Below are positions 3,766 to 59,449 of a DNA stretch of 64,000 nt, piece by piece (the first letter of the stretch is position 1; every line of letters starts with the position of its first letter). The notes below the pieces were generated by a model. That model was not told the DNA's origin. It worked only from the letters and a program-made list of their open reading frames with translations, and made no database searches. The DNA comes from an uncultured Planctomycetales bacterium (GTDB lineage: Bacteria > Planctomycetota > Phycisphaerae > UBA1845 > PWPN01). The position numbers were made by a program, and so were the translations under genes. Location: contig CAZZFA010000004.1 of NCBI GenBank assembly GCA_964653435.1, positions 22,492-86,491 of the forward strand. The letters are read 5' to 3'.

Positions 3766-4249
3766 CTTGACTCGGGACGAATTGCAGGCTGTCGTCGATC
3801 GACGGATCGGACACCCCGTTCTGGTCCCTTTGGGTGACGTCAATGAGTCCCGGGACTGCCCGCGGGATAACCGCACGCCGCTCGACATCCTGATTGCGCG
3901 CGAGGAGGCAGAGCTGCACATCGCCGAGCGCGTGGCGGAATACATGGCGGTCCACTACGAGGACTGGCGCCTGACACTGAGCCAACTGGGTCCGGCTGGG
4001 GTACATGCTTTAGTCTCTGAGATTCTTGGGGTGCTTCCTGCGCATGATTATGTGGCAGAAGAGGTCGCAGCCTCGCTTGATCTTAATCCCACGACATACA
4101 ACCGCATTGCGGGGCAGACAGGCCTGTCTGATCTCGCGCGAGCCACAGCACAACTCTGCTGCCAGGACGAGCATCTGAGGGAGTTTGCCTGTGAGTGCGG
4201 CCTCCGTAAGCACATCCGTCGCGCTCGCGATGGCGAGGGGGACCGTTGA
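3755..4249 (+). CDS. hypothetical protein, possible HTH
   Basis: 164-aa ORF with SD GGAGG just upstream of ATG 3755. The segment EEVAASLDLNPTTYNRIAGQ looks helix-turn-helix-like (weak). Its stop overlaps the TTG of the next ORF. Confidence 0.65.
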   Translation: MSLNLTRDELQAVVDRRIGHPVLVPLGDVNESRDCPRDNRTPLDILIAREEAELHIAERVAEYMAVHYEDWRLTLSQLGPAGVHALVSEILGVLPAHDYVAEEVAASLDLNPTTYNRIAGQTGLSDLARATAQLCCQDEHLREFACECGLRKHIRRARDGEGDR

Positions 4250-5562: not shown

Positions 5563-5579
5563 AAAGGAGAACTGTACAC

Positions 5580-6146: not shown

Positions 6147-6193
6147 CAGCAAAGGTCAGGCGACCCATCGCGGCACGTCAACGACAGCAGGAG

Positions 6194-6856: not shown

Positions 6857-6868
6857 GGAGGATTGCAG

Positions 6869-7447
6869 ATGAACGCGACACTGGAGGACCTTCTCGATGT
6901 GCTCAACCCCGACACGATGATCTTCGAGATCGAGCGTCGTAGCCAGCAGACACTCGGCCAGGTGAACTGGCCGGATGAGCCGTTTTCGGGGCCGGAGGAT
7001 TTCATGACGTTTCTCATCCAAGTCATGAGAGCGGGTGAGCGGCACATGCTCAACCTGCCCGAGGCCACGGGCGGCCACGATGGCCACTACCGCAGCATGT
7101 GCCGCAGCCTGCTCGATGAGATCTACGGCCCGAGCGGCTTACGCACGGCCTTTGACTTCGCGGTTTCCGGGGAGAACGGCGGGCTCTATAACGTGGTCTC
7201 GCAACTCCTCGGCCGGATGGCCGGCACGTACGCCGGCAATGAGATCGAAGGCCGCATCAACGCATGCTGGAACTCCCTCAGCCACGAGGAGAAACTCGCC
7301 GCGCCGGACGAGTATCTTGCCCGCTACGGCCATCTGCTGCCCCCCGAGTTGGTCGAGGGCAGCGCGCCCGTCGTCCGCGCCCGCTTTCCCGAGATGCTCA
7401 AGAACCATGTCCGTCTGCTCAAGGACCTGGCGCGGGTTGGGCGGTGA
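6869..7447 (+). CDS. hypothetical protein, paralogue family member
   Basis: The track ORF starts at TTG 6863, but ATG 6869 sits 7 nt after SD AAGGAGG. It contains NGGLYNVVSQLLGRM...CWNSLSHEEKLAAPDEYLARYGHLLPPEL...RFPEMLKNH...LARVGR. Confidence 0.8.
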   Translation: MNATLEDLLDVLNPDTMIFEIERRSQQTLGQVNWPDEPFSGPEDFMTFLIQVMRAGERHMLNLPEATGGHDGHYRSMCRSLLDEIYGPSGLRTAFDFAVSGENGGLYNVVSQLLGRMAGTYAGNEIEGRINACWNSLSHEEKLAAPDEYLARYGHLLPPELVEGSAPVVRARFPEMLKNHVRLLKDLARVGR

Positions 7448-7609
7448 TACACCGCAGCCTGGAGTTTGGAGAGCTTTACAGGGCTTGTCGGTAGCGAATT
7501 CTGTCGGGCGAAGATGAAATCGCGCGTCCATAACGACCGCACTCCATATGGCCAGCAGGTCGCCGGCCTTTGGCTACAGCGGCGTCAAGTGGCCGCAGAA
7601 AGGAGAAGC

Positions 7610-7972
7610 ATGAGCAAGTACTATGACAAGTGTGGAGGGCCTGAGCCCCTTCTCCCCAAGAAGGGTCCCTTCGGGCTCGGACGGGCGATGGAGCCGTACA
7701 AGTGTATCGAGCCGGACTGCTTGGGACATCTGAATCCGCGCGAGCGCTGCATACCTCTGCCGACTCGCTGCAAAGCCATAGGCTGTCCTGGGCATAAGTC
7801 TCCCTTCGAGAAGTGCCATGAGCCGATCTTCCCCATTCACTGCTCGGAGATGGGGTGCCCCGGCCATTCTCGTTTTGGCGAGAAGTGTTGGCGTCTGAAA
7901 ACGTACTGCGGTGCCCGAGGCTGTCCAGGGCATGAACCGCCGTTCACGGAGTGCTTCCCGTTCGATCCGTGA
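7610..7972 (+). CDS. small Cys/His-rich protein with four tandem C-x4-C-[LP]-G-H-x6-C units
   Basis: Internal ATG 7610 of track ORF 7466..7972 is preceded by SD AAAGGAGAAGC. The 120-aa product is MSKYYDKCGG...; the repeats are CIEPDCLGHLNPRERC, CKAIGCPGHKSPFEKC, CSEMGCPGHSRFGEKC and CGARGCPGHEPPFTEC. Confidence 0.75.
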   Translation: MSKYYDKCGGPEPLLPKKGPFGLGRAMEPYKCIEPDCLGHLNPRERCIPLPTRCKAIGCPGHKSPFEKCHEPIFPIHCSEMGCPGHSRFGEKCWRLKTYCGARGCPGHEPPFTECFPFDP

Positions 7973-8034
7973 GGGAACCGGTATTACTTTGGTGTCACCA
8001 GCAACATCAAAGCGATCATCACAGACCACGTAAT

Positions 8035-8090
8035 GCGACGCAGGCCTCGCGACCCCGCATGTGGATTCGCAGCCTGCGTCGCTCCTTTCT
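8035..8090 (+). terminator. hairpin (11-bp perfect stem GCGACGCAGGC/GCCTGCGTCGC, 26-nt loop) followed by a T-rich run
   Basis: Stem arms were read at 8035-8045 and 8072-8082, followed by TCCTTTCT. It lies about 60 nt after the stop of the Cys-rich gene, in a 296-nt lower-GC gap before the ATPase gene. Confidence 0.35.
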
Positions 8091-8268
8091 CGGGAGGTGT
8101 GAGCAGGTCAGCATGTACACGATGATTCTCTCGATGTGGTTCATCCTGATGGCGTCTGACCAGCCAGGCATGAGCCGGCATATGGCCACATCGACTGGAT
8201 GGTGCCGGATAACAGCCACCGCGTGTCCATCCAAAGTGCAAGGCTGAAAGAAAGGGAGGACCCAATCG

Positions 8269-10782: not shown

Positions 10783-11377
10783 GCGGGATTCAGCTGGGGC
10801 GGACGAGGTGCTGCAGCGGCTTGTCGACATGCTGCAGCCGGGTCGGATCATGCGTATCATAGATGAGCCGGTCGACAAGGCGGCAGAGGTGTTCGCATGG
10901 CCGACCGAGTCGGCTGCCTCCCGCAACTTTGCACAAGTGCTCGCATCATTTCTGCAACACATATACCGGCACGCCTTCCCCGACGGCGAACAGCTCTCAC
11001 CGTGGCGCGCCCATGATGAAGTCATCGCTTTGCTCCAGGCTGATGCACAAGACCCTATGGCGGGAGGGTACATTGGCGCCGCGCTGGATACCCGGGATGC
11101 CGAAGCGCCGCCTTGGTATGAACTGGGCGCGCGTATCACCGGGGCCATCAAGACGCGTCTGCGTCGGCAATACGTTCAGTGGGTCCTCGCCATGGAGATC
11201 GACCCCCGCGACTGGTCCATGCAGTGTGCCTTGACGGAGATCGTGATCGAGCGGATGCAGCAATACCTGCCCCCTGAGATCGCTGCGGGCCCGCCCGAGC
11301 GATGGGCGAGCCAGCTCAGCGGCCTGCTTGGCATGTACCTGGGCCTGCAGGACGAGGGGGGAGTACGGTTGATCTGA
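10769..11377 (+). CDS. hypothetical protein, distant paralogue family member
   Basis: 202-aa ORF whose ATG overlaps the last codons of the ATPase gene (coupling). It contains ...ERMQQYLPPEIAAGPPERW..., resembling the YGHLLPPEL motif. Confidence 0.65.
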   Translation: MRASERDSAGADEVLQRLVDMLQPGRIMRIIDEPVDKAAEVFAWPTESAASRNFAQVLASFLQHIYRHAFPDGEQLSPWRAHDEVIALLQADAQDPMAGGYIGAALDTRDAEAPPWYELGARITGAIKTRLRRQYVQWVLAMEIDPRDWSMQCALTEIVIERMQQYLPPEIAAGPPERWASQLSGLLGMYLGLQDEGGVRLI

Positions 11378-11456
11378 CGGGTCTGAAACGGAATCTCCAT
11401 TTCTCCCGCTCTCCTGGCTGCAGGCCTGCTGTTCTTGGTGTGCAGCCGGGAGAGCC

Positions 11457-12578
11457 ATGGTGAGCCAAGCAGCACCAATCCCACCCACCCCCGAGCGGAT
11501 CGCCCTGTTCCGCGCGTGCTTCTCGGGCTTGACGCATGTCCGCGGCACCTACAACCCCGCCACCGGCCGGGCCTTCCCCATCAAGGGACCCGTGACGGAT
11601 GCCGTGATCCGCGACCATCTCCTCGGACTGCGACCGTACGGCGTTTACCTGCTCACCGGCAATGTGACCCGAGCGGTGGTGGCTGATTTCGATCAGGAGG
11701 ATCCGACTCTGCCGTGTGATTTCGTCGCGCAGGCATCGCACTATGGCATTCCCAGTTATTTGGAGCGGTCGAAACGCAATTGGCACGTCTGGATCTTCCT
11801 CGATTCGGCCGGGGTCTCCGCAAGGAAGGCCCGGCGCGTGGCCCAGCTCATACTCGATGAGATCGGTGCGCCCGCCACCGAGCTCTTCCCCAAACAGGAC
11901 TGTCTCAGCAGTACGATTCAATTCGGCAATTTCATTCACCTCCCTTTGTTCGGCCGTGCTCTGGCTCAGGGACGAACCACGTTTGTTGATGTCAAGAACG
12001 GCTTGCGGCCGTACCCCGACCAGTGGGCCGTATTGGCCCAGATCGTGCGGGTCCAAGAACATCAGCTGGACGAAATCATCGCGATCAACGAGCTCGACGA
12101 GCCTCACTCCATAGGGGTGACCACAACCAGCTCCGGTTTGCATAAAACCTTCGGCCTTCTGCCTTGTGCCCAGCGGATGCTCAGGGAGGGGGTAACCAGC
12201 CACCAACGAGTGGCCTGTTTTCGGCTGGCCGTCGCGATCAAGAAGAGTGGTATACCGCTCGACCTCGCCGTGGTGCTCCTGCGGGCCTGGGCCCTGAAGA
12301 ACCGGCCCGAAAAAGGGCGGAGAATCATCACTGAGGCCGAGATCATCGAGCAGGCTAATGCAGCTTATGCCCGGCCGTACCGAGGCATCGGTTGTGAAGA
12401 CGCGGCGATCAGGCCTTTTTGCGATGCCAGCTGCCTTTTGCACCGCCGGCGCCCTCAATGCCGGAGGGTTTTGCCTGAGAGGACGCCTCCGCATCCGGCT
12501 GGCCGGACGCGAGGCTTGCCGGCGCAGGACAACTCGCGGGGGCAAGGGAGCCCAGGATCGACTTCGTCCTCTGGGTGA
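11457..12578 (+). CDS. archaeo-eukaryotic primase-type Prim-Pol replication protein
   Basis: 373-aa ORF with SD GGGAGAG upstream. AEP-like motifs are VVADFD, NWHVWIFL and GNFIHLPLFG. A C-terminal Cys cluster reads CEDAAIRPFCDASC. The last ~55 aa are a low-complexity tail overlapping the convergent gene. Confidence 0.8.
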   Translation: MVSQAAPIPPTPERIALFRACFSGLTHVRGTYNPATGRAFPIKGPVTDAVIRDHLLGLRPYGVYLLTGNVTRAVVADFDQEDPTLPCDFVAQASHYGIPSYLERSKRNWHVWIFLDSAGVSARKARRVAQLILDEIGAPATELFPKQDCLSSTIQFGNFIHLPLFGRALAQGRTTFVDVKNGLRPYPDQWAVLAQIVRVQEHQLDEIIAINELDEPHSIGVTTTSSGLHKTFGLLPCAQRMLREGVTSHQRVACFRLAVAIKKSGIPLDLAVVLLRAWALKNRPEKGRRIITEAEIIEQANAAYARPYRGIGCEDAAIRPFCDASCLLHRRRPQCRRVLPERTPPHPAGRTRGLPAQDNSRGQGSPGSTSSSG

Positions 12579-13416
12579 GATCCCCACCTGCAGTCCAGAT
12601 CGGGGCCCACAGGCCCTCTCGCCGCATACGGGAATCTTCGGTCGCCCACACGAAGTCCGATGGCGGCGTCTGTCGGATGAGCTGACACAAGCCGGCAATG
12701 CGGGAGACGCCGCCGGCAACAAACAAGACACGGAAACCGATGAACGGCTTGTTGCCGGTCGCGAAACGCTGATAGTCCCCGCTGCGAAACCATGCCTGAT
12801 ACCGCAGGATCTTGGATTGGACATCACGGTTGGGGCCACGGCCGCTGATCCGTGGCTGTGTTCCCATGTCTACCTCCAGGAAGAAAAGGAGCGTCTTGTC
12901 GACGCCCCGATGCCGGATGGCGAAGACGCCATCGGGAACAAGGTCGGCCTGCCCGCTGATCGGCTTGTTCTCCAAGGATTGCGTGTCGGCCGGAACCGGC
13001 CGGTTCGTGCTGATTCGTGACGTCGCGAGATTCAGGGTTTCAAAGCCGCTGAAGTGGCGGGCCAGGAGAGTCAGTTGGGCCCACACCTCGCTTGCCACCT
13101 CGTCGTGTTCGGGGTGCTTCAGCCCGCGGACGGTGAGCTGTTCGGCCGTGATGTCGGCATCAATCAGGCCCAGGGCCTTCAGGCAAGTGACGCCGTTGGC
13201 CGACAGCGACACCAGCTTTTCCGGGCGACCGCTGCCCCGACCGAGTCGGCTGGAGTCGGCCTCGATCAGTCCCTGCTCATGAAGAATCCTGAGTCGGTGT
13301 CGGGTAGCCGGACCGTTCCGCTCACACCGTATCGCCAGTTGTGTCGCTGTCAGCACCCGATGCTCGGCAATCGTCAGGAGCAGCTCATGATCACGTTCCG
13401 AGAGAACGAAGCCCAT
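12409..13416 (-). CDS. replication-relaxation family protein (winged-helix N-terminus)
   Basis: The track ORF starts at GTG 13428, but ATG 13416 follows SD GGTGGAG. The N-terminus MGFVLSERDHELLLTIAEHRVLTATQLA...RHRLRILHEQGLI and the later FFLEVDMGT match my recollection of Pfam Replic_Relax (unverified). Confidence 0.8.
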   Translation of the reverse strand: MGFVLSERDHELLLTIAEHRVLTATQLAIRCERNGPATRHRLRILHEQGLIEADSSRLGRGSGRPEKLVSLSANGVTCLKALGLIDADITAEQLTVRGLKHPEHDEVASEVWAQLTLLARHFSGFETLNLATSRISTNRPVPADTQSLENKPISGQADLVPDGVFAIRHRGVDKTLLFFLEVDMGTQPRISGRGPNRDVQSKILRYQAWFRSGDYQRFATGNKPFIGFRVLFVAGGVSRIAGLCQLIRQTPPSDFVWATEDSRMRREGLWAPIWTAGGDLTQRTKSILGSLAPASCPAPASLASGQPDAEASSQAKPSGIEGAGGAKGSWHRKKA

Positions 13417-13607
13417 CACAGTCTCCACCTTGCGGGCTCGATTGCAGGAACCGAACCGCGCATCATCCTGTACTGCGAGAGGAATCCGATCTGGATTTCA
13501 ATCGAGCAGCCCCGCACCCCTATGAGATGCAAGACAACTCATCGTGAGGCTCGACACTCGCAAACACCTGAAACCAGAAACCCATTTGACCCGCTGGTAT
13601 TGATAGA

Positions 13608-13659
13608 GGCTGCTGAAGCAGCCCGGCTGACCGAGGTGGTACGCAGGACAGTATCCTGC
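13608..13659. promoter_or_regulatory. two short perfect inverted repeats in a divergent intergenic region (candidate ori/oriT or operator)
   Basis: GGCTGCT-GA-AGCAGCC lies at 13608-13623 and GCAGGA-cagta-TCCTGC at 13643-13659. Both lie between the replication-relaxation gene and the 13743 gene. Confidence 0.25.
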
Positions 13660-13742
13660 GATCCATCCGGGAGCCGGGCGATCTTCAAGCATCCTGATCG
13701 TGATTGGGTGATATTCGTGTTCATGCGAGAAGGAGGTTCGAG

Positions 13743-14081
13743 ATGTCTTACTCGTCTCAAAGACCCGTGAAGGAATTCCGCGCCCTGGGCGGAGGCACTG
13801 TTACCGCCTCGGTGTGGCGGAACGAGAGCGAAAAGGATAGCCAGATTCTCGTGAGTTACAGCATCCGCGTCCAGAAGCGGTACCGTGACCGCGACACGGG
13901 AACCTGGCACGACTCGGAGTACTACTTCCCCGAGGATCTCCCGAAGCTGCGGCTCGTCGTCGAGAAGGCCTACGAGTACACCAGGCTGCGTGAACGCGGT
14001 CCTCAGGCGACGGGGCCAGTGGATGCAAGCGGACCCGCGGATGTGGACTTTGAAGCTGGCGCCTCGGCGGAAGGTACCTGA
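13743..14081 (+). CDS. small hypothetical protein (possibly PC4/YdbC-like ssDNA-binding; weak)
   Basis: Internal ATG 13743 of track ORF 13704..14081 follows SD GAAGGAGG. The 112-aa product is MSYSSQRPVKEF...SIRVQKRYRDRDTGTWHDSEYYFPEDL. Confidence 0.7.
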   Translation: MSYSSQRPVKEFRALGGGTVTASVWRNESEKDSQILVSYSIRVQKRYRDRDTGTWHDSEYYFPEDLPKLRLVVEKAYEYTRLRERGPQATGPVDASGPADVDFEAGASAEGT

Positions 14082-14107
14082 CAAAATGATGCGTCGATTG
14101 TGCTCAG

Positions 14108-14140
14108 GAAGCCCGCTGGCTCGCCGCTGGCGGGCTTCTT
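14108..14140 (+). terminator. rho-independent-type hairpin
   Basis: GAAGCCCGC (14108-14116) pairs with GCGGGCTTC (14130-14138), followed by TT. It lies 27 nt after the 14081 stop. Confidence 0.5.
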
Positions 14141-14246
14141 GGTAATCCCAGTCAGAAAGAGGCCACACCATCATCCCCAGAGGTGTCGACCATGTGCTTC
14201 CCGGGGCACAGTTAGGCAAGCAGGGCAACAGCACGTGAGCTAACGG

Positions 14247-14600
14247 ATGAACGAGCGCGCCGAAGAATATGTCTTGCCGACCAAGCTCATCGAGGAGCTG
14301 ATCGAAGCGATACAGGACCTTCGAAGTGCCAGGAACCCGGCCGAGGCGATGAGGCCCCTCAGCATCGATGAGGCGGCCAAGACTCTCCGTTGCCGGCGAA
14401 GCGAAGTAGAGAAGCTGATTGCGAACGGAGCAATGCCCTACATCAAGCGCAATGGCCGACGCTACATCCTGCCGTCAGATATCGCCCAGTGGCTGAAGAA
14501 TGAATCGGAACGACAGCTTCCTCCCAAAGGCAGAAGAAGACCCCGGCACCGTCTGAAACCAGAGGACGTCGATCCGGCCTTACGGGAGTTTTTTGAGTGA
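14247..14600 (+). CDS. excisionase-type helix-turn-helix DNA-binding protein
   Basis: 117-aa ORF. LSIDEAAKTLRCRRSEVEKLIANGAMPYIKRNGRRYILPSDIAQWL is typical of the excisionase/MerR-like HTH_17 class. It is convergent with the integrase and overlaps it by 21 nt. Confidence 0.75.
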   Translation: MNERAEEYVLPTKLIEELIEAIQDLRSARNPAEAMRPLSIDEAAKTLRCRRSEVEKLIANGAMPYIKRNGRRYILPSDIAQWLKNESERQLPPKGRRRPRHRLKPEDVDPALREFFE

Positions 14601-15920
14601 TCGCGTCTTGTGCTTCTTCTTCCAGGCGTTCAGCTCTTTGGAGTCGAGCGTCTTGTTGATCCACTCCACGACTTCCTTCGTTTCTGGGGTCAGAGGCTTG
14701 AGGTACTCATCCGCAGCGTCGGACCTGCCGTGGCCAAGGAAGGTCCTCAGCTGGGCGATACCGGTACCGGGGCGAGCCGCGTACGCAGTCGCACCGAGGT
14801 GTCGCCAGACGTAGAAGCCCTCTTTCCACTGCTCAAGGTCTGCTCGAATCCGGAGCTTTCGCCAGGCTTGGGCCACATCGTCGGAACGCTTGAACGGGGT
14901 TTTCGCGGGTTTTCGCGTACTGGTGCCGTTCAGCATCTCGTCTATGGTCTTGGTCATCACCCAAACCAGGGGCCTGCCCGTTCTGGTGACGAAGAGCAAC
15001 TCATCCGCCTGTCTCGGTGTGCTCTTCAGGTACTCCCTAAGGTGAGCCCACACCTGCGGCCGCATCACTCCGAAACGGGGAAAACCCGTCTTGCCTCGCC
15101 GCATGTCGTAACTGTCCGCGTCGAAGTGGACCAACCGGGCACGGGCCAGATCGTCGTTCCCAAAACCCAAGCCGAGGCCCATCCAGATCCACAGACGCTC
15201 GCGGACCGTGGCGGCCTCGAGGAGTGTTTGAATCATCTTGACGGTCGGAATCTGCCGGGTCTTCTTCGTCTCGGTGCCGCCGAACTTCCTGACGTCCTCT
15301 TGACTGAACGGTAGCCGGATACTGAAGGGGGCTCGCCGTGCAAAGCGCACGATCTCCCAGAAGCGCTGGCGGTGTTTGTTGACCTGCGAGGCGCCCAACC
15401 GTGTGACGAGGGAGAGCATCATGGACTCGTAGTCGGTTGCACCCAGGACTTGATCGAAGGGCGTAGTGCCCAGCTTGGTGCCGTACGTCTCCTTGCACCA
15501 CCGCAGGATGCGGACGACTTGCCTACGGTTGTCGTCGAACACCCGCAGGCTGATGGTACCCTTCGCTCGTCTCGCCTCCTCCAGCCGCACCCGTCGCCTT
15601 TCGTGCTGCAGGTAGGCCTCTGCTATCGCCGGCAGACTATCGTCCAGATCCCCCTTGCCGACTTCGCTGTCCCGTGTAACAATAGCGGCGGCTTGGTCGT
15701 AGTTCTCGACGACCCACCGGTGGTACGCGAGTTCGGACTCGGTTCGGTCCGTCGAGAATCGCTGTCGCCTGGGCTTGCCGGCGGGATCGCGGTATGATGT
15801 GTAGTAGCGGCCCGTGCCGGGTTCAGGCTTGTCGGAGAGCCTGGGGATGCGTCGTTTTCGCTGGGGCTTTTGCTCGGTCATGACGGACATGATACAATCA
15901 ACCCTGGCGAGTGGCAACAT
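14580..15920 (-). CDS. int: tyrosine-type site-specific recombinase/integrase
   Basis: 446-aa ORF. C-terminal catalytic-region motifs are MRRGKTGFPR, WRHLGATAYA and FLGHGRSDAADEYL. The start could also be ATG 15890 or 15881. Confidence 0.9.
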   Translation of the reverse strand: MLPLARVDCIMSVMTEQKPQRKRRIPRLSDKPEPGTGRYYTSYRDPAGKPRRQRFSTDRTESELAYHRWVVENYDQAAAIVTRDSEVGKGDLDDSLPAIAEAYLQHERRRVRLEEARRAKGTISLRVFDDNRRQVVRILRWCKETYGTKLGTTPFDQVLGATDYESMMLSLVTRLGASQVNKHRQRFWEIVRFARRAPFSIRLPFSQEDVRKFGGTETKKTRQIPTVKMIQTLLEAATVRERLWIWMGLGLGFGNDDLARARLVHFDADSYDMRRGKTGFPRFGVMRPQVWAHLREYLKSTPRQADELLFVTRTGRPLVWVMTKTIDEMLNGTSTRKPAKTPFKRSDDVAQAWRKLRIRADLEQWKEGFYVWRHLGATAYAARPGTGIAQLRTFLGHGRSDAADEYLKPLTPETKEVVEWINKTLDSKELNAWKKKHKTRSLKKLP

Positions 15921-16007
15921 AAGGGCAGAAAATGGCCGGTATTGGACGGTTTATGGCAACAAAATGCTGAACGACAAAGAATGCAAAGCCTTTAAAATAA
16001 AAGACTT

Positions 16008-16079
<72 letters not shown>

Positions 16080-34325: not shown

Positions 34326-36284
34326 TCATCTGCCCGACGGGTTCTTCGCCGGGGGCCTGGCCAGATCGCGGATTCGCTCCGCCATGTCTGTCCCGTGAAT
34401 CTCAACGGCGAGAACCTTGCCGTCGGGGCCGATCAGAACGTTGAAGGGGATGAACTTCACGCCGAAGATTCCGGCCGTCGTCTCCGCGCCGCTGTCCGGG
34501 CCGGCGACGAGCGGCCAGGTGAGTTTCTCCTGTTCCGCGAATGTCTTGACGGCCTCGGCCGTGGCGTCCAGGCTGATCCCGAGCATCAGGAAGTCCGATC
34601 GCGATTTCATCTCGGCGTAGAGCTGCCTGAGCCTCGGCATCTCCGCGCGGCACGGCGGGCACCACGTCGCCCAGACATCGACGAAGACGTATTTGCCGCG
34701 GAGCTTCGAGAGCGGGTATCGCGTGCCGTCCAGTGCGGTTACGCTGAAGTCCGGCGCGGGTTTGCCCACTTGCAGCGCCTCGCTTCGCGCGGCGGCCTCC
34801 TCGGCGGCCCCCGCCGTCGTCGGCCTTCGTGCCGGCTCAAGCGTGAAGCGATAGTCGGTCTTCCCCGCCGTGAGGACCCGGCCTGAGAGCCGTCCTCCGC
34901 CGGGCCGGAAAAACGCGAACTCGATCGGCCCGTCGGGAGCATGTTCGAACGCGAAGCGGCCCTGCTCGTCGGTAAGCGCCCGCAAGCCGATGACGTCGCG
35001 ATCGCGCCAGCGGGTGCAGACTACCTGCACCTGATCGAGCGGCTTGCCCGCTTCATCCACGACGATGCCGGCCAGCGGCTTGCCCCGGGACAGGCGGATG
35101 GGAATTCGCCGCGTCCAGCCCGCCCGCGCCTCGTCATCCAGAAGCTCGGGGGCGTAATCGGGATGCTGGACCGCCACGGTGATCCGCCCGGGCGCAACAC
35201 CGGCGATCTCGAAGTTCCCCTCCGCGTCCGTCCATTCGATGCATGTGCCGCCTCGCCCCGCGACAACCACGATCCGCGCCCCGTTCACCGGTCGTCCGTC
35301 GGCCGCATCCGTGACCCGGCCGGCCACCCTCCCGCCACGGGGCAGTATCAGCGTGTAGGCGGCCGGGCGGCTTGCCGACGGCATGGTTTCGGGCGTAGCG
35401 GTTGCCTCGTCGAGCGCCAGACTGACCGCGGCGTCCGCCATTCGCATGCCGTCGGGATGCCTCGCCCGCCATGCGATCTCCGTCGTGTCCTTCGCGATTC
35501 CATGCAGATCGGCCCGGCCGTCCGCGTCGGTCGTCGCGGAGAAGGTATCATCTCCCGCCTCGACCTCGATTTCCGCCTCCGCCACGGGCTCGCCTCGGTC
35601 GTTCACGAGTCGCACCCGCACCGGCCGTTCCGGCGCCAGCCGGACGTGAACCTCGGCCGTGTCGGGCTCGACGCGAATCCGCTGCCGTTGGCGTCCGAAG
35701 CCCGGCCGCGAGACGACAAGCACGCCGGCGCCGGCCGACAGGCCCCGCAGCTCGAACCGGCCGCGATCGTCGGTCCTGCCTTCCCACCGGCGATCCTGTA
35801 TGTCGATGCGTACGTCCGCATCACTGACCGGCCGGCCCGTCTCGGCGGCCACGACCGTTCCGCGGACCGACAGCGTCCCGACCATCTCGACGTCGACGAA
35901 GGTCTCTCGCTCGCCGGGCTCGAACTCGACGGGCGCGAAGAATACGGCGAATCGTTCCTTCTTCACGCGGACGAAGAGCTTTCCGGACGGCGCGCCCGGC
36001 AGCCGGATGCGGAAGTCGCCGGTCCTGTCGCTGGCAGCCTGCCCGAGCACGCGTCCCTGGGTTTTCTCGTCGCCGCCGCTCTCCACCTGGACGCAGGCCC
36101 CCTCGATCCCGGAACCGGCGGCATCGAGAGCCTGGCCGACGACGACCCACTCGTTGTCGGGAGATGCGGGCGGGGCCGGCTGTGCGCGTGCGGGGAACGA
36201 TCCCAGGATCGCGACGAGGCTCGCCGCAGTGGCAAGGGCGGCCGCCGGCATCGCGCCGTCTGACCGTGAGGCGGATGGGTACAT
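34326..36284 (-). CDS. secreted TlpA/thioredoxin-like thiol-disulfide oxidoreductase with N-terminal carboxypeptidase-regulatory-like beta-sandwich repeats
   Basis: 652 aa. The C-terminal redox motif is FVDVWATWCPPCRAEMP. The N-terminus has repeated G.V.D..G.P..GA.V segments. Confidence 0.85.
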   Translation of the reverse strand: MYPSASRSDGAMPAAALATAASLVAILGSFPARAQPAPPASPDNEWVVVGQALDAAGSGIEGACVQVESGGDEKTQGRVLGQAASDRTGDFRIRLPGAPSGKLFVRVKKERFAVFFAPVEFEPGERETFVDVEMVGTLSVRGTVVAAETGRPVSDADVRIDIQDRRWEGRTDDRGRFELRGLSAGAGVLVVSRPGFGRQRQRIRVEPDTAEVHVRLAPERPVRVRLVNDRGEPVAEAEIEVEAGDDTFSATTDADGRADLHGIAKDTTEIAWRARHPDGMRMADAAVSLALDEATATPETMPSASRPAAYTLILPRGGRVAGRVTDAADGRPVNGARIVVVAGRGGTCIEWTDAEGNFEIAGVAPGRITVAVQHPDYAPELLDDEARAGWTRRIPIRLSRGKPLAGIVVDEAGKPLDQVQVVCTRWRDRDVIGLRALTDEQGRFAFEHAPDGPIEFAFFRPGGGRLSGRVLTAGKTDYRFTLEPARRPTTAGAAEEAAARSEALQVGKPAPDFSVTALDGTRYPLSKLRGKYVFVDVWATWCPPCRAEMPRLRQLYAEMKSRSDFLMLGISLDATAEAVKTFAEQEKLTWPLVAGPDSGAETTAGIFGVKFIPFNVLIGPDGKVLAVEIHGTDMAERIRDLARPPAKNPSGR

Positions 36285-43704: not shown

Positions 43705-44605
43705 CGGGAGGCGGTCGGGCGCGTTATCCGGTCGAGGTACGGCAAACCGTTCATAAGCAATCAGGCGTCCTCGGTCACGGTCGTCCGTCGCTCTTTGCGA
43801 CCGCCGGGAGCGCGGCTTCGACCTCTCTGACTGGCGACGACGCGTTCGGCAGGCGACCGTCCGCATCCCCGCGCACATGATTTGCGGGGACAGGTCATCG
43901 GGCCCGCAGGAGCGGCCGGGTTCGGGGCCCGCGCAGCGATCAACGATGCAGGTGGCTTGCCTTTCTGTCGCGAAAGTGACCTTCTTTGCGAGCGCCCCCG
44001 ATGCTTCAAGTACTTGCTGTGGAGATGGTTAGCGCCGCTTTCGGTTCGAGAGTTTCGTTCGTTTCCATTCCCGTAGGGACGACTGAGCCTTCGCGGCGCT
44101 GCTCGCCGCATGCGAAACTGTCTTCCCGAGAACGGCATCAGCGCATTCTTGACGCGACAAGTCGGGTCGTGCGGTTGAGCGTCAGACGAGCGTAATCCGC
44201 TATTTATCATGACGTTATGCCGACAACCTTGCCGGAGACCAGCCAAGAGCTACACCGGAAGATGCGCGGGATTTCCTTTGCATTTCCGACAAAGGCGGGG
44301 TATGCTTGTTGCAGGATGGATGGGATCAAGAAGATCCGCGTAAACGTCGGCAACGGAAGCGACACGTGAACACATGTCGTACCGACTTGCCGGGGTGGGT
44401 CAGAAGCCGTCGACAATTCGGAAGGCAATTCTCGTTTACCCGGGGATTGAGGCTTCCCTGCCTGGTTGTGATTCGGCGGCCCGCCGCAACGAACGATGCA
44501 GGGCGGGATCCTGCACCGCCAAGTGTCGGCTGATCCCGCAAGGGCGGTCTTGATACAGCGCGGCGCGATCGCATCGCGCCATCGGCTCACGGGGGCTTCA
44601 ATACC

Positions 44606-47600
44606 ATGGTCACAATGTCGAGAATGCGGTACCGCGTGTTGGTTGTGGGCGGGTGCGTGTTGGCTGTCGTGTGTGCGCATCGCCCCGAAACGGCCCTCGC
44701 CCAGCCCGTGGCAAACCCCGGTGGGCCATATACCGCCACAGCCGCAACCCGCGCCGAGGGCGGATGGACATTCTCATTCGACGGCAGCGCCTCCACCGGC
44801 GACCCGCCCCTGGTCCAGTGGGAGTGGGACTTCGGCACGGACACGTGCGAGGGCCAGTGGCTCAATACGTTCAAGTGGGTTTCTCAGAACGCCTACAACG
44901 ACGGCGCCATCATCCTGAGCGGCGCCGGCTGGGGAAACAGCTTTGTCTTCAGCCGCGAGCCCGTTCTGCGTCAGGAAGCGGCTACGCTCACGTTGGGGCC
45001 ATCCGACGCCGCCGCGGGCCGCAGCGCCGACTTCGATTCGGATGGGGACGTGGATACTGCCGATTTCCTGGTGTTCCAGGGCTGTTTCAGCGGTTCGAAT
45101 CGGAGCCCGTCGGCGGCAGGATGTGAAATCGCGGATCTGGACGGCGACGCGGATGTGGACACCGCGGACTTCGGAATCTTTCAGGACGCATTCAACGGTC
45201 CCAACCGGCCGCCCAAGAACGCAAAGCCCGCGGACTCTTCGCCGGCGCCGGCCGACTCCCCGGGCAATCCGGTGCCCGGTGTGTTTCAGGCCCGGGTGAC
45301 GCCGGACGGCGGGCACGCGATGTGGGGGTTCAAGAACACGAGCACCAACTACAGCTACACGCAGATGCCGTATGCGCTGTATTTCGAGCGCGGCAACCTG
45401 CACATCTACGAAGACGGGAGCCACCGCGGCCAGTTCGCCACGTATGCGCCCGGACAGACGTATGACGTCCGCATCGAGCTGAAGACGGCCGGCGGCGCAC
45501 GATACCTCTGGAAGCTCCCGTCGGATGCTGACTGGACGCTGTTGCGCGATACGACGTACGGCTCGGGGACGAGCCTTCTGCGCGGCGTGACGGTCGAGTC
45601 CGGAACGTTCCGCATGGATGACGTGCGCGAGGTCTTCTACGGCAAGACGCTGACCCACAAGGTCTACCAGGGCGGGCCGGCGATGCTGACCGTGCAGGAC
45701 TCGACGGGGCAGTCACAGACGGCGACGTTCGACATCGCCGTCGAGCCTGCGGATATCGTCGCGAACGCCGGCGGTCCGTACACGCAAACCGAGGGCGACC
45801 GCGGGGCCGACGGCTGGACCTTCAGCTTCGACGGCTCAGCCAGCACGAGCGGCCTCGAGATCATCCAATACGAGTGGGATTTCGGGCCGGATACGTTCGA
45901 CGGCGACGGACCCGATGCGGGCCAGTACTTCATCGCCAGGGCCTACCAGACCGCCGGCCAGGTCCGCATTTCCGGCAGCGGATGGGGCAATGCTTATCTG
46001 TTCGCGCGTCGCATCGTCACCCGATCCGGCGCCCCGATCCTGCAGGCCCGGGTGACGCCGGACGGCGGGCAGGCGATGTGGGGGTTCAAGAACACGAGCA
46101 CCAACTACAGCTACACGCAGATGCCGTACGCGCTGTACTTCGATCGCGGCAACCTGCGCATCTATGAGGACGGCAGCCACCGCGGCCAGGTCGGCTCGTA
46201 CACCCCCGGCCAGGCGTATGACGTGCGGATCCGTTTGAAGAATACGTCGGGTGCGATGTATTTCATCAAGCCGGCCGATGCCGCCGACTGGACACTGCTG
46301 TACGACTCCTACTACGGCAGCCAATCGGAGTTGCTCGCCGGCGCGACCGTCGAATCGGGCACGTTCGTGATCGACGAACAGACGCGCCGCTCCTACGGGC
46401 CGACGCCGCAGTGCACCGTTGCCGGACCGATGCCCGTGACGCTGACGGTGACCGACCTCCTGGGGCGCACGGCGTCGCAACAGTTTTCGCTTCGCATCAC
46501 CGGTCAGCCGCCCGTCGCGGATGCCGGCGGCCCGTATAGCGCGAGCCTCGGCGAGACGGTTACCCTGGATGGCACGCGATCCACCGACGACTACGGCATC
46601 GTCCGCTACGAATGGGACCTGGGCACGCAGACGTTCGACGGCAGCGAGCTGAACGGGGAGGCGTGGTTCGCGAGCCGGGCGACCCAGGACAATCGGCTTC
46701 TCGTGACCGGCGCCGGCAACTGGGGCGGCGCGTATGCCTTCTCGAAACAGATCGTGTCGCGGGCGAAGGATGTTGCGCTTGAATGTCGTGTGCTGCCGTC
46801 GGGCAATCACGCGATGTACGGCTTCAAGAACCTCTCGGGTGACTACAGCTACACCCAGATGCCCTACGGCCTGTACTTCGCGGGAGGTACCCTCCAGGTA
46901 TGCGAGGACGGCAGCGGCCGCGGGAGCGTAGGAGGCTACAGCAAGACCACGCCGTACGACGTCCGTATCGTCCTGAAGGAGACCGCCGGCGCCACCTACT
47001 GGATCCGCCCGACCGGCACGGAGGTATGGACGTGCGTCTACGATTCCAACTACGGCACCGGCACGCGGTTTCTGCGCGGCGTGACCGTGCACAGCGGCGT
47101 TTTCGAGACGGACGATTTTCGCGACGTCTTCGGCGGCAGCCAGGTGCCCTACATTGTCACCCGCGACACTACCGCGCGCCTGACCGTCTACGACGTGCAG
47201 CGGCAGGCAACAACCGCCTCGGTTCCCGTGCAGCTCATTCCGATGGTCGTGTGCGTGCCCTGGGACTACGACAAGATCAGCGGGCGCGAGATCCCGCACA
47301 ACGCATGGGACGGCCTGGCGACCCGCCTGAAGGCCGTCGCATACACCGACACCTCGGCAAGCAACCTCTCCGTCACGTGGGACTTCGGCGACGGGACGGC
47401 CGCGGAGACGGGCGGCGTCTCCGACAAACGAATCATCGAGACGATGCATAGCTATCGCGGCGACCCCGGTGCGCTCTACACCGCGACGGTCACCGTGCAT
47501 GACCCCGTCCATGGTGACCTGAGCGATACGTACCCCGTGCAGATCCACGCCAGGGACCTGACGATCGAGGTGAACGTGGCGATCGACGAGGGTCTCTGGT

Positions 47601-50600
47601 TCCTCCACAAGCGGAACCTCGGCGGGTGGTGGAACTCGAACCAGGGATACTGGGTCAGTCCGACGGCATCCTGCGTCCACGCGCTCGAGATCAACGGCCA
47701 TACCCTGAATCGCTCGCGATCGATCGATCCCCTGGTCGAGGATGTGGCCGGCGGGCTCCGCAGCATCCTCAGCAACCTGTACGCCTCGAGCATCGCCGCG
47801 CAGCCCTACGGCGACCCGGACTCCAACGGGAACGGCCTCGGCATCTTCGTCAATTCGGGCCGGCGGATCTACGAGGGCGGCATGGTCATGGATGCCCTGG
47901 CGGCCAGTGGCGTGCCCGACCGGGTCGCTGACGTCGGCGGCAGCGGCATCCTGGGCCGCACCTTCCGCGACATTGCGCAGGACATGATGGACGCCTACGC
48001 CTGGGGTCAGGTCGATTCCGGCGCGGCGCGCGGCGGATGGCGCTACGAGTGGAACAGCGGCGCCGACAACTCCGCCTCACAATGGGCCGCCATCGGTTTC
48101 CTCGGCATCAAGGCCGCCTTCGGTCTCGATGTCGCCGCATGGGTGAAACAGGAGAACAACGTCTGGCTCACCTACAGTTACAACGGCACCGGGTTCGGCT
48201 ACGACGGCCCGGGCAACGGCCAGGCAACCACGCCGTCCGGCATGGTCCAGCTCGCTTGTGACGGTTATGAGATCAGCGACCCGCGATGGCAGACCGCCGA
48301 GGCATACATCGCCAACAACTGGGATTGGTTCCGCAACAACACGAACATCTATGCCTGGTACGCGTTTACAAAGGCGATGCGGGTGGCCCTGCCCGCAGCG
48401 GTGGTCAATCTGAGGCCCACGGGAATGGACTGGTATGCCCACCCGACCAAAGGGATCGCCCGGCTTCTCCTGAACTTCCAGCGTTCGGACGGAGGCTGGC
48501 CCCCCGACATGGGCTGGAACCTCGGCTCGCCGTTCAACACGGCCTGGAGCGTGGTCATCCTCACGCCGACGCTGTTCACGCGCCCCCCGGTCGCCGTGGC
48601 CGGCCAGGACATCGTCTGGGCCTTCGACCGGCCGCTCGAGTTCGACGGCTCGAAGTCGTATCACACCGATCCCGCGCGCGTGCTGGTGCTGTATGAGTGG
48701 GACTTCGACGGCGACGGCACTTATGACTACGCCGGCGCAGATCCTCGGACGACGCACACCTATTCCTTCGACCCCAACATTCAGTACCCCGTCATCTATC
48801 AGGCCAAGCTGCGCGTGACCGACGACGTCGGTCAGGCGGCCACCGACACCCGCGACGTCACCATCGCCGAACCGCCGCACGCGCCGTTCGCCAGGGCCGG
48901 CGGGCCGTACACGGTGAGCGCCGGCGTCCCGTTCCATCCGGACGGCAGCGGCTCCTATGACATCGACCCCACCGACTACATCACACGCCAGGAGTGGGAT
49001 TTCAACGGGGCCAACGGCTACAACTTCGACCAGCCGGATGCCGCCGTCGATTGCACCGCCGCCGGCTGCCCGCAGGTCACCTGGGTCTTCACCGCGCCGG
49101 GGACGTACAACATCGGCCTGCGCGTATGGGACAACGGCGTCCTGCACCCGCAGAACCGGAAACTTGCCTCGGTTCCCGACTACACCACGGTCACCGTCGT
49201 GCAGAACCAGCCGCCCACGGCCAATCCGGGTGGGCCTTACACTGTGGACGAGTGCAAGTCCGTGAGGCTCGACGGTTCCGGCTCGACGGATCCCAACGGC
49301 GACGCGATTACGTACGCATGGGACCTCGACGGCGACGGCGAGTTCGACGACTCGACCGAGCCCGCGCCGATGTTCACCCGGAACCAGAACGGCACATACA
49401 CCGTCAGCCTGATCGTCTCCGACGGCGCGACGCAGAGCCCGCCGGCAACCACGCAGGTCCTGGTCCGCGACACCGCCCCGACGGTCTCGCTTACGGGCCC
49501 GAGCCGACTCGGAATCAGCCAGGAAGGCACTTTTACCGCGACGGTCGGTTCGCCCTGTGACGCGGTCGTGGGCATCCAATGGGATTGGGATTACGACGGC
49601 ATCACGTTCCAGGCGTCCGGCGACGAGGGAACGACGCAGAAGCACGGCTATGCCGCTCAGGGCAGGTACCGCGTTGCCGTTCGCGTCACCGACAGCGATG
49701 GCTCCGCCGCGATTGCCGTGCTCGATGTGACGGTCGAGGCGCCGGTCGCCCCTCGCGTGCCCGCCGGCGTGCGGGTCAAGGTGGTCGTCGGCCAGCGTGA
49801 ATACGACAACGCGCGGAAGGTCCACCGCGGCCAGTTTTCGCTCGTCAGCGTCTACGATCTCCCGATCACGGGGCCGGTCGCGCTCGCCTTCGACAACATC
49901 AAGCCCGACACGGTGAAGCTGCTCAACAGCCAAGGCACGGTTCGTGACCCGGCGACCGGCCGCGATCTCCCGTACGTCGACTTCAGCGACCTGCTCGCCG
50001 GCGGCAAGCTCGCCCCGGGCGCGACCCTCGGGCCCAAGTGGGTCGAATTCGAGGATCCCGGCCGGGTGGCGTTCACCTTTGACGCAATGGCCTACATCTT
50101 CAACGCCCCGCCGAAGTTCACGTCCACGCCGGTGCTGACCGCCGACGAAGGCCAACGCTACCGCTATGAGGCCAAGGCCGTGGACGACGACGGCGACCCG
50201 ATCACGTTCGCCCTGCGCGACACGAACGGAACCCCTCCCCCGGAGGGCATGACCGTCCATCCGCTGGCCGGCATCGTTGATTGGGTTCCGTCGCAGACGG
50301 CCGCGGGGGCCCATGATGTCACGCTCGTCGCGATCGACGGCTTCGCCGGCGGCGAGGGCACGCAAACGTTCCGGATCACCGTCGGCGCCGTCGACGCACC
50401 GCCTGTGATCACCTCCGCGCCGCCCACTACGGCGACGGTCAACGTGGCGTACCAGTATCAGGTGGTCGCGTACGACCCGGACGGCGGGGCCGTGACATTC
50501 ACGCTGCCGACCGCCCCGGCCGGGATGACCATCGACGCGGCCGGCGGCATGATCCAGTGGGCCGCGCCGGTTGTCGGTTCGCACACCGTAAAGGTCGTCG

Positions 50601-58759: not shown

Positions 58760-59449
58760 GTGGAAAGAAGCGGTTGGCTCCTCGGGCTGTGGATCGGCCT
58801 CTGCGCGGTTCCTGCTGCGTACGCTCTGCCCACCAACGCCGACTTCTCGGCCGGTCTTTCCGGCTGGACGACAAGTGGAACGGTCATCGACGGCGGCGGC
58901 TACGCCGTGCTGCTCGAAGCGACCATGCAGGATTCCAGCTCGCTGTACCAGGACTTCGTCATCGACGCCGGGGCGATTCGCCTCTCGTTCGACTACGCAT
59001 TCCTGACGGACGGCTGGTTCAATCAACAGGCCCTGCCCGATGCGTTTACTGCCCGCCTGCTCGATCCGGTTACGCTCATGCCGATTCTCGCGACGACCGG
59101 CCGGAGCGACTACTTCTACCACGACGCCCGGGGGGAATCCGACAGCCTCGTCTTCGCTCCGATCGCCGTCACCCGCACGCCCGTCAGCGATCCGCTCCGC
59201 CCCGATTGGTATACCATCAGCCTCGACGTCTCCTCACTGACGGCGGGCACCAGCGTCCGGCTCATGTTCGAGCTGCTCGGCGGTGACAACGGTCAGCAGA
59301 CGCTGGCTGCCGTCGACGGCGTGAGCCTCGGCTTCCGCGAAGAACCGATCATTCCGGAGCCGTTGACCGTCGGCCTGGTCGCCGCGGCCCTGGCCGCCCT
59401 GTCGTACCGCTACGGCCGTCGCGAAACGGCCTCTCCAAGTCAGACCTGA
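58760..59449 (+). CDS. secreted PEP-CTERM sorting-domain protein
   Basis: GTG 58760 lies 6 nt after SD GGAGG (the track ORF starts at 58676). The signal peptide is VERSGWLLGLWIGLCAVPAAYA. The C-terminus IIPEPLTVGLVAAALAALSYRYGRRE is a PEP motif + TM + basic tail. Confidence 0.8.
   Translation: MERSGWLLGLWIGLCAVPAAYALPTNADFSAGLSGWTTSGTVIDGGGYAVLLEATMQDSSSLYQDFVIDAGAIRLSFDYAFLTDGWFNQQALPDAFTARLLDPVTLMPILATTGRSDYFYHDARGESDSLVFAPIAVTRTPVSDPLRPDWYTISLDVSSLTAGTSVRLMFELLGGDNGQQTLAAVDGVSLGFREEPIIPEPLTVGLVAAALAALSYRYGRRETASPSQT

Follow-up and report, generated by a model that had tools for sequence, protein, structure and literature searches.

What is the product of a planctomycete gene that runs for 4669 codons, begins like an exported adhesin, and ends like an Rhs toxin? 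The gene lies on contig CAZZFA010000004.1 of an uncultured Planctomycetales bacterium assigned to Phycisphaerae, within a stretch of 64,000 nt that was analyzed as a whole and is called the window hereafter. A preliminary description, made from the sequence alone, had presented it as a single open reading frame (ORF) that combines adhesin-type arrays with a complete Rhs/YD toxin cage.

44606..58615, + strand: giant ORF, 4669 codons, ATG start, no internal stop

We lean towards reading its product as a Sec-exported, surface-displayed effector of the Rhs/YD polymorphic-toxin type, carried on a giant adhesin stalk. The packaging of toxic proteins in Rhs cages is widespread. We know of no account of how Sec-dependent Rhs proteins are exported, anchored, and fired in double-membraned bacteria, and of nothing specific for Planctomycetota. 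The family described here offers a conserved membrane-type insert in the shell that is absent from every solved cage, a new payload family with a candidate catalytic triad and a pilin-like anchor, and an exported candidate immunity protein. If the model of export and tethering proposed below is true, it would show how a large cage with a hydrophobic payload passes through the Sec pathway; if it is false, one is left with a very large but ordinary adhesin-Rhs fusion.

Integrity and Conservation of the Gene

The giant ORF takes up 14,010 of the 64,000 nt, i.e., 21.9% of the window (22% in the preliminary description). Its GC content at third codon positions (GC3) is 0.87 overall, and the third position ranks first among the codon positions in 46 of 46 consecutive sub-windows of 300 nt, because of which a frameshift hidden in the ORF is judged absent. 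The 3′ end of the gene and the gene that follows it recur at 99.2–99.5% identity in two other assemblies, Logan DRR438509 (L007) and GCA_035390905.1 (L008), the latter a metagenome-assembled genome (MAG) labeled Phycisphaerae at NCBI. A scan of genomes for relatives found one, L003, in a different species-level MAG ("uncultured Planctomycetales"), which is colinear with the window over 11.5 kb at 86% DNA identity. The L003 ORF has 3545 stop-free codons, leaves the edge of its contig, and matches aa 1125–4669 of the window protein. Support from a second assembly starts at about aa 1125, and the first ~1120 residues (the 5′ 3.4 kb) come from the window assembly only. An exact-sequence look-up of the whole giant protein returned no record. 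Four further relatives of the tip, P0002 to P0005, come from contigs L001, L002, L006, and L004, respectively.

Between the window and L003, the ratio of nonsynonymous to synonymous substitution rates (dN/dS) is 0.09–0.22 in every large region of the gene, 0.19 in the insert of the shell, 0.36 in the tip helix, and 0.17 in the tip domain (see following for these three). Purifying selection acts across all regions of the giant gene, which is real, maintained, and single. The preliminary description had named a frameshift or an assembly error as what might split its 4669-aa ORF; there is no stop, GC3 is consistent, and the assemblies are colinear, so that this ORF stands as claimed. A recent horizontal acquisition was considered and found no support, as the GC content of the gene (0.64–0.69) is near that of the flanking genome.

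The Rhs Cage and Its Insert

The C-terminal third of the protein begins with the following parts:

53906..54565, + strand: Rhs N-terminal plug region with DUF6531, aa 3101–3320
54566..57010, + strand: first part of the YD-repeat shell (RHS_repeat, YD_repeat_2x), aa 3321–4135
57011..57310, + strand: shell insert of ~100 aa, aa 4136–4235, with a hydrophobic segment, an RGVRRRR loop, and a signal-peptide-like segment ending VYG/L (here and below, the slash marks the putative cut)
57311..57979, + strand: last YD repeats and Rhs-associated core, aa 4236–4458, ending ...SMDDWQG...HNDPINNLDPSGH

The elements that characterize cage-forming Rhs proteins are all present, namely tandem YD repeats, a plug before them, and an Rhs-associated core with a protease motif. 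DUF6531 matches aa 3115–3162 (E 3e-9, 37.5 bits for a cut-off of 24.1). The repeats are found in 17 stretches by RHS_repeat (PF05593, E 3e-144) and in 18 by YD_repeat_2x (TIGR01643), and Rhs_assc_core (TIGR03696) covers aa 4378–4458 with 65.1 bits for a cut-off of 32.5 (E 6e-18). The core terminates in ...RARYYNADAGRFVSMDDWQG...HNDPINNLDPSGH, with a final DPSGH. The plug, the YD repeats, and the canonical core end that had been announced from the sequence are thus recovered by family models, and the YD region does match Rhs profiles. The bipartite DxxG...DPxG aspartyl-protease motif, RARYYNADAGRFVSMDDWQG...NDPINNLDPSGH, is present in every relative. Against solved Rhs cages (7q97, 8h8a, 8qja, Tse5, Tse15, Tre23, and 9ifo) the cage region gives E values from 1e-51 to 1e-37, and the C-terminal ~200 residues of 8h8a and 7q97 align with the core, including RxYD..GRF and both DxxG motifs.

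The ~100-aa insert breaks the series of YD repeats about 235 residues ahead of the cleavage motif. Its hydropathy peaks at aa 4160 and 4198. The first hydrophobic stretch reads FVGFLLFAAATAATLLTPCGLLLPAAGAVG, and the second, FFTMTVALFLVPCVFVG-PENVYG/L, is tripartite like a signal peptide. Solved Rhs cages have no counterpart of this insert, and HMMER alignments skip the segment cleanly. The layout is kept in all four relatives whose sequence covers the insert, among them L003 (VYA/M), P0003 (RRRRGVGRAAYYRGMRVR-MIALLLVPVMLFG-PDAVLA/T), and P0002 (RRRGTFMRTVS-MFLLPTMILA-PQAALA/I). Identity is only 37% in the insert, versus ~52% in the cage, and the layout is therefore more conserved than the sequence, as one would expect of membrane or signal segments. 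It is possible that the insert originated by gene fusion, though the present gene is a single maintained ORF. A limited literature search returned no description of a conserved insert inside an Rhs shell.

The same insert raises the question of whether an adhesin, an Rhs N-part, and an Rhs C-part might be read through as one gene, in an assembly chimera or a decaying pseudogene, the insert being a fossil C-terminal sorting signal followed by the signal peptide of the next gene. The insert does look like a tail made of a transmembrane segment and an Arg cluster, followed by a signal peptide; repeat-rich genes are error-prone in MAG assemblies, and the relative in L002 is fragmented upstream. 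Against this, the frame is open over the junction in the window, in L003, and in P0003 (the frame of the fragment P0002 stays open as far as the end of its contig, at the Arg-rich loop), the GC3 frame holds in all of the sub-windows, dN/dS is as low in the insert as in the large regions, and the colinear L003 belongs to a different species-level MAG. A chimera or a pseudogene is very improbable, and this explanation is largely refuted.

The C-Terminal Tip

Behind the core, the protein ends in a tip of 211 aa that has two parts:

57980..58090, + strand: tip helix, aa 4459–4495, of transmembrane type, directly after the predicted autoproteolysis site
58091..58615, + strand: globular domain of the tip, aa 4496–4669 and stop, with invariant Cys4546, His4616, and Asp4639 and a C-terminal QGG

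The tip opens right after DPSGH with a helix of ~35 residues that is very hydrophobic by hydropathy, with a rough membrane-insertion score of −3.3; an AlphaFold2 model has a helix over tip residues 3–43. The globular domain has no sequence match in Pfam, NCBIfam, or the PDB. An exhaustive HMMER pass over 1.84 billion representatives returned three proteins, namely P0001, a fragment 100% identical to the giant protein itself, and two relatives. Together with a profile search and the genome scan, this brings the family to six members (the window copy, L003, and P0002–P0005), and two metagenome scans with tip alignments gave no matches. The tip copies with known upstream sequence all follow an Rhs core, with the exception of the orphan P0005 (contigs L004 and L005). 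In the alignment of the six sequences, Cys4546 (in ACG), His4616 (in HQ), Asp4639 (in LDxW), and the terminal QGG are invariant.

From the single sequence, AlphaFold2 modeled the tip with a mean confidence (pLDDT) of 42.7. An alignment of five sequences, with the L003 row left out, gave a best model with pLDDT 76.7 and a predicted template-modeling score of 0.73, the other four models having pLDDT of 42–48. In the best model, the Cys opens a helix, the His is in a strand, and the Asp comes after the next strand, which suggests an arrangement of the papain-fold type. At the top of the Foldseek lists, papain- and transglutaminase-like Cys peptidases and "papain fold toxin 1, glutamine deamidase" predominate, none of the hits being significant (best E 0.2). 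Going by the model, the tip domain is likely a Cys-His-Asp hydrolase with a papain-like fold.

The helix of the relatives resembles the N-terminus of type IV pilins. In P0002–P0005 the tip helix has the pattern (F/Y/L/M)TL(I/L)Q(T/R)IVVIAIIAI, and their first ~25 residues after DPSG(H/N) read FTLIQTIVVIAIIAIVVAIG, where pilins and pseudopilins have FTLIELLIVVAIIGILAAIA. The Rhs cleavage site of these four coincides with the position of the prepilin-peptidase site. Cleavage of Rhs proteins is by convention placed after the residue that follows DPSG, and the register of the helix on pilins assumes such a cut. Matches of the four helices to pilin models (geopilin, PilA, PpdD, GspG/H/I, ComGC, N_methyl) are sub-threshold, with E from 4e-5 to 0.5, and depend on the order of the residues, as none of eight shuffled versions of the helix matches. 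In the pilin register, the relatives have 12 identities in 24 positions (shuffle P < 1e-5, in a test picked after the match was seen) and the window's own helix, which has diverged from the pattern, has 6. The helix does not qualify as a class III signal, position −1 being His or Asn instead of Gly and position +5 being Gln (relatives) or Thr (window) instead of Glu. Its scores are 10.4 bits for N_methyl (cut-off 21.2) and 6.4 for TIGR02532 (cut-off 16.3), and the globular part of the tip has no pilin match. Hence, the tip helix resembles a pilin N-terminus in sequence and fails membership, a resemblance that fits homology and convergence alike. No description of a tip family with a pilin-like anchor was found in the limited literature search.

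A helix of this kind also suits a protein of adhesion or sensing instead of a weapon. By analogy with teneurins and autoproteolytic adhesion receptors, the tip helix might be the producer's own anchor, with type I topology, so that the giant ectodomain, YD shell included, would stand on the producer, and the Cys-His-Asp domain would lie in its cytoplasm as an enzyme freed or activated on contact. The transmembrane helix is indeed strong, and the six Lys or Arg that follow it within 25 residues in the window protein fit the positive-inside rule. Nor is the tip swapped among relatives: it is as conserved as the rest of the protein in L003 (87% identity, versus 85–92% elsewhere), and in P0003 it has 39% identity, versus ~52% for the cage. 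The dN/dS of 0.17–0.36 between the window and L003 gives no indication of diversifying selection on the tip. The neighboring gene, moreover, codes for an exported-type rather than a cytoplasmic protein and is missing at one locus. However, the helix begins 1–2 residues past the cleavage site, which is inside the shell in solved cages and leaves no linker to a membrane, and the stretch behind the helix has a near-neutral charge in the relatives. A tip and partner that travel as an orphan cassette with ~19 residues of Rhs core are typical of toxin systems, and the nearest documented systems of this layout are toxins (PMC13018210). A role in adhesion or sensing is, on this evidence, unlikely.

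The Downstream Partner and the Orphan Cassette

A second gene follows the giant one in the same orientation:

58676..59449, + strand: 257-aa exported-type protein with a PEP-CTERM-type tail, starting 60 nt after the giant ORF

This partner has a predicted signal peptide and a tail, IIPEP-LTVGLVAAALAALSY-RYGRR and 8 more residues, that consists of IIPEP, a transmembrane segment, and a basic cluster. The PEP_CTERM model (TIGR02595) gives the L006 orthologue 16.0 bits for a cut-off of 16 and the window copy no match, and there are no exosortase genes within the window. The partner holds the same position in L003 (79% identity), L004, L005, and L006 (47%), and the start of the next gene in L001 belongs to it.

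L004 and L005 carry an orphan tip, with no more than ~19 residues of Rhs core (KYTYCHNDPVNNSDPSGH) in front of it. Before these residues there are a stop codon and unrelated sequence, yet the partner still follows the tip. The cassette occupies L004:1-1916 and L005:1-1916 (JGI metagenomes 3300035659 and 3300035701), and in L004 an integrase-like gene (rve_3) lies ~4 kb beyond it. Because the orphan cassette retains the partner, the partner goes with the tip. Toxin-immunity pairs behave in this way, and the partner is, as far as its sequence and position tell, a candidate immunity or accessory protein. A PEP-CTERM partner of an Rhs tip was not found described in the limited literature search.

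The partner may be given another role if the toxin is directed against non-self, that is, against algae, protists, other eukaryotes, or bacteria with a different envelope. It would then be a surface scaffold or co-adhesin, for example for the dockerin-like module of the giant protein. Such a target would sit well with a tip that is not polymorphic and with a partner that is missing at one locus and resembles a generic beta-rich PEP-CTERM surface protein. The producer also has the profile of a surface-attached degrader of polysaccharides (the window encodes four sulfatases, a pectate lyase, and a GH20 protein), and noncellulosomal dockerin/cohesin complexes have been proposed for Phycisphaerae (PMC6461901). 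Two results speak against a scaffold: the orphan cassette retains the partner although it has no dockerin-bearing body, and no cohesin model matched the partner. We regard a toxin against non-self with such a partner as unlikely.

A Working Model of Export and Action

In the polymorphic-toxin reading that we favor, the first ~3100 residues would form a binding head and a long stalk, which hold the protein on the producer and reach and bind the surface of the target. The last ~1570 residues would form a closed Rhs cage made of the DUF6531 plug, ~18 YD repeats, and the core. The aspartyl-protease motif would cut after DPSGH, and the 211-aa tip would stay inside the cage. As payload, the tip would join its N-terminal membrane-anchoring helix to a Cys-His-Asp enzyme, probably of papain fold, and act at the cytoplasmic membrane of the target, on its outer face, with the enzyme domain in the periplasm; the exported, PEP-CTERM-anchored partner would shield the producer in the same compartment. 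The shell insert would most likely be a stop-transfer and re-export hairpin that tethers the cage to the cytoplasmic membrane of the producer during export, and a signal-peptidase cut at the insert might yield a two-piece cage, as in TcB-TcC. The preliminary description had spoken of contact-dependent toxins, a label that for this protein is an inference. Precedents are Sec-dependent toxins of the Rhs and teneurin-like kinds that have adhesion domains at the N-terminus and an immunity gene behind the toxin gene (PMC13018210).

Several observations weigh against this model. Sec export is expected to halt at the tip helix because the helix is so hydrophobic; the tip domain would therefore be left in the cytoplasm of the producer, which conflicts with encapsulation. 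For this difficulty, the teneurin-like protein BiTLP is a partial precedent, since it is predicted to be Sec-secreted and yet encapsulates a C-terminal domain with a predicted transmembrane region (PMC13018210). The hydrophobic segments of the insert are only marginal on a rough insertion scale, and an NCBIfam scan of the insert matched no sorting-signal model (PEP-CTERM, MYXO-CTERM, or others), on which ground it was rejected as a recognizable signal of these kinds. Machinery for secretion or delivery across the outer membrane is not encoded nearby in the window. The partner is found at six of seven loci, being missing from L002, and is a generic-looking exported beta-rich PEP-CTERM protein that could equally be a surface anchor. 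As to the fold of the tip, one AlphaFold2 model in five is confident, and the fold search gave nothing significant. Finally, of the marks of a variable toxin with its immunity gene, the locus has the 211-aa tip and the conserved downstream gene, and an orphan cassette exists in L004 and L005, but the tip is orthologous in all relatives; the polymorphism of C-terminal tips that the preliminary description suggested looking for among homologues did not appear when the tips were compared.

A more elaborate route would make the insert a stop-transfer sequence followed by an internal signal peptide, so that Sec threads the shell as two pieces, which would be membrane-tethered or cut by signal peptidase. 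Rhs autoproteolysis would then expose a pilin-type helix without the help of a prepilin peptidase, and the toxin, its Cys-His-Asp domain in the periplasm, might slot into the target membrane like a pilin subunit or enter the assembly pathway of a pilus or type II secretion system. We consider this whole chain distinctly unlikely.

Head and Stalk

The ~3100 residues in front of the cage consist of the following segments:

44606..44701, + strand: putative Sec-type signal peptide, aa 1–32, MVTMSRMRYR-VLVVGGCVLAVVCA-HRPETALA/Q
44702..47260, + strand: three repeated modules of ~250 aa, aa 33–383, 384–635, and 636–885
44996..45280, + strand: dockerin-like pair of Ca-binding loops with a Pro/Ser-rich linker, aa 131–225, nested in the insert of module 1
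47261..47590, + strand: PKD domain, aa 886–995 (PKD E 2.4e-6, PKD_4 E 3.9e-6)
47591..48580, + strand: domain of ~330 aa with GGW-type motifs, aa ~996–1325, family not assigned (the earlier "toroid")
48581..49720, + strand: four PKD domains, aa 1326–1705 (PKD_4 E 3.9e-29; PKD; K319L-like_PKD)
49721..50110, + strand: segment of ~130 aa, aa 1706–1835, with zero Pfam matches at E ≤ 10
50111..53380, + strand: 12 He_PIG (cadherin-like Ig) repeats of ~92 aa each, aa 1836–2925
53381..53905, + strand: two Ig-like domains (Big_7/PKD-type) that link the array to the cage, aa 2926–3100 (Big_7 E 1.1e-8, 2 stretches)

Inspected by eye, the translation of aa 1–32 has a basic n-region, a hydrophobic core, and an AxA site (ALA/Q), and would make a Sec-type signal, as the preliminary description had it. 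The three modules are 44–56% identical to each other. In a PDB profile search of the module, its first ~45 and last ~30 positions match PKD domains of KIAA0319L and collagenase, and each module is a PKD domain split by an inserted unit of ~170 aa, for which there is no Pfam or PDB match and no detectable relative. Of the earlier "3x (PKD-like + LamG-like)," the three modules and the PKD assignment hold, whereas the LamG label finds no match, and the unit to which it was given sits within the split PKD instead of after it. The dockerin-like segment occurs in module 1 only, in the alignment of the three. Its two DxDxDGxVDxxDF loops are visible in the sequence, as had been noted, and its score for Dockerin_1 (PF00404) is below the threshold (E 0.043, 14.4 bits for a gathering cut-off of 22.9), so that the segment is dockerin-like only and fails membership in Dockerin type I.

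The domain with GGW motifs has no Pfam or PDB match as a single sequence. Among its 76 homologues, mostly proteins of ~600 aa with PKD domains on both sides, none has a Pfam annotation over this region, and a profile of 34 sequences matches PDB chains in their PKD and Fn3 parts only. An alpha/alpha repeat fold would be consistent with the motifs; the labels "alpha/alpha toroid" and "lectin/terpene-cyclase-like head" received no support from Pfam, the PDB, or the 34-sequence profile. The unit made of PKD, GGW-motif domain, and PKD (window 47261–48900) also exists as stand-alone proteins of ~600 aa (P0006–P0079), whose source names include Geobacter, Desulfobacter, Acidobacteria, Akkermansiaceae, and one Halobacteria archaeon.

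The further PKD domains of the preliminary description are matched by PKD_4 (five times in the whole protein), PKD, and K319L-like_PKD, the boundaries of the four consecutive ones being placed by their GGPY and WDFxxDG motifs. Its estimate of about 12 cadherin-like repeats agrees with He_PIG, which covers 12 stretches (E 2.5e-117), with additional matches to Big_9 and Ig_SIBA-E_2nd and weak ones to Cadherin_5; the repeat starts were located by the motif PPxITSxP. The long-read contig L002 begins with a He_PIG-coding region (L002:1-1910) that is split into several short ORFs and lies upstream of the 2623-aa relative P0003. These are probably sequencing frameshifts, and the P0003 orthologue is likely much longer than called.

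Genomic Surroundings

Upstream of the giant ORF there is a divergent sdhCAB-like operon, separated from it by ~850 nt of noncoding DNA (window 43761–44605) that has no convincing ORF and slightly lower GC, and in which a simple scan found no sigma-70-like promoter. Downstream follow a tRNA-Arg(CCT), an hldE-like gene, and methyltransferases, and mutS is found elsewhere in the window. The window contains no genes of type VI (T6SS), type VII (T7SS), two-partner (TPS), or type I secretion systems.

Other parts of the window deserve mention. Between 19585 and 31085 there is a polysaccharide cluster with a PL2 periplasmic pectate lyase, four sulfatases, a BD-FAE esterase, and a GH20-like protein, which is typical of Phycisphaerae that degrade sulfated glycans. 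The first 16,079 nt have a GC content of ~0.60, versus 0.66–0.70 for the remainder, and the shift coincides with a tRNA-Gly(CCC) at 16008–16079. This region (1–16079) encodes an archaeo-eukaryotic primase (TOTE-type, E 2e-32) and a weak match to TrwB-like coupling proteins, and most of its other ORFs, including one of 446 aa beside the tRNA-Gly(CCC), have no Pfam match. It is probably an integrated mobile element. At 34326–36284, on the − strand, a protein of 652 aa has the unusual architecture of three CarboxypepD_reg-like domains and a C-terminal AhpC/TSA-redoxin domain.

Comparison with Known Systems

Giant genes and dockerin-like modules are known in Planctomycetota, where noncellulosomal dockerin/cohesin complexes have been proposed for Phycisphaerae (PMC6461901), and RHS-repeat polymorphic toxins with Sec-type export have been catalogued in planctomycetes (PMC3482391).

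The best matches of the cage are the Rhs effectors of T6SS (RhsA 7q97, Tse5 8cp6, Tse15, Tre23, and the Rhs of Salmonella bongori, 8qja), with E values from 1e-51 to 1e-38 and a shared core motif. Tse5 carries a hydrophobic, membrane-acting tip inside its cage. The Pfam scan found no PAAR, prePAAR, or VgrG domain in the giant protein, and the window has no VgrG or T6SS gene. An assignment to the T6SS Rhs effectors was therefore rejected, the protein having a Sec signal and 3100 adhesin-type residues instead of PAAR or VgrG. Delivery by T7SS or TPS was also rejected, because their domains are absent from the protein and their genes from the window. The core protein of enterobacterial RHS elements (NF041261) is related, and the giant protein is not a member (289 bits for a cut-off of 2000).

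The cocoon of Tc toxins, formed by TcB-TcC, is similar in its YD cage, its aspartyl autoproteolysis, and its encapsulated payload. A Tc BC component was nevertheless rejected, as a whole-protein Pfam scan detected neither TcB/SpvB-type N-terminal domains nor a beta-propeller gate; no TcA partner was detected either. The TcB-TcC cage consists of two polypeptides and is in this respect a precedent for a cage cut at the insert. A two-piece cage is here purely hypothetical, and its junction would be only ~235 residues before the cleavage site, unlike that of TcB-TcC.

Bacterial teneurin-like proteins (TLPs) are defined by an FN-plug, an NHL beta-propeller, and a YD-shell superfold, have a TIP domain in 96% of cases, and are reported from six phyla, Planctomycetota not among them (PMC13018210). 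BiTLP (PDB 9ifo/9pt5) and its kin resemble the giant protein in their Sec-type signals, in adhesion domains that vary at the N-terminus, in a plugged YD shell, and in a DPxG...DPxG autoproteolysis motif. Their encapsulated C-terminal domain can be hydrophobic with a predicted transmembrane region, as is the tip, and the gene immediately downstream, which acts as immunity in TLPs, has its counterpart in the partner gene; the cage region matches 9ifo with E 8e-37. However, NHL repeats have no match at E ≤ 10 in aa 3100–3900, where the RHS repeats start ~220 residues after the start of the plug, and TEN_YD-shell gives 25.9 bits for a cut-off of 50. The protein was hence rejected as a TLP, for lack of a detected NHL propeller, one of the defining domains (PMC13018210), and the teneurin-style membership suggested in the preliminary description does not hold. 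The C-terminal domains of TLPs average ~15 kDa and are hypervariable (PMC13018210), unlike the tip of the giant protein, which has ~23 kDa and is conserved. No shell insert is described for TLPs.

The likeness to WapA of Bacillus subtilis, drawn here from established knowledge and PMC12704120, does hold at the level of domains, with a Sec signal, adhesin-type Ig arrays, a complete Rhs cage, and a C-terminal tip. Both have an N-terminal Sec signal, a surface-binding N-region (putative in the giant protein), a YD shell, and the Rhs core cleavage motif, and both have a C-terminal region, a toxin in WapA and a candidate toxin here, with a downstream gene (the immunity gene WapI for WapA) and no dedicated secretion machine alongside. 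WapA itself is half the size, comes from a Gram-positive bacterium, and carries wall-binding repeats where the giant protein has PKD, He_PIG, and dockerin-like modules. The tips of WapA are polymorphic nucleases for which immunity is cytoplasmic; they do not begin with a transmembrane helix, and the shell has no insert. In conclusion, the general kind is already known, a Sec-dependent Rhs toxin that is WapA- and TLP-like and whose cage sequence is nearest to the T6SS Rhs effectors. The most unusual features of this locus are the shell insert, the transmembrane helix of the tip, and the exported PEP-CTERM neighbor, all three of which were missing from the preliminary description.

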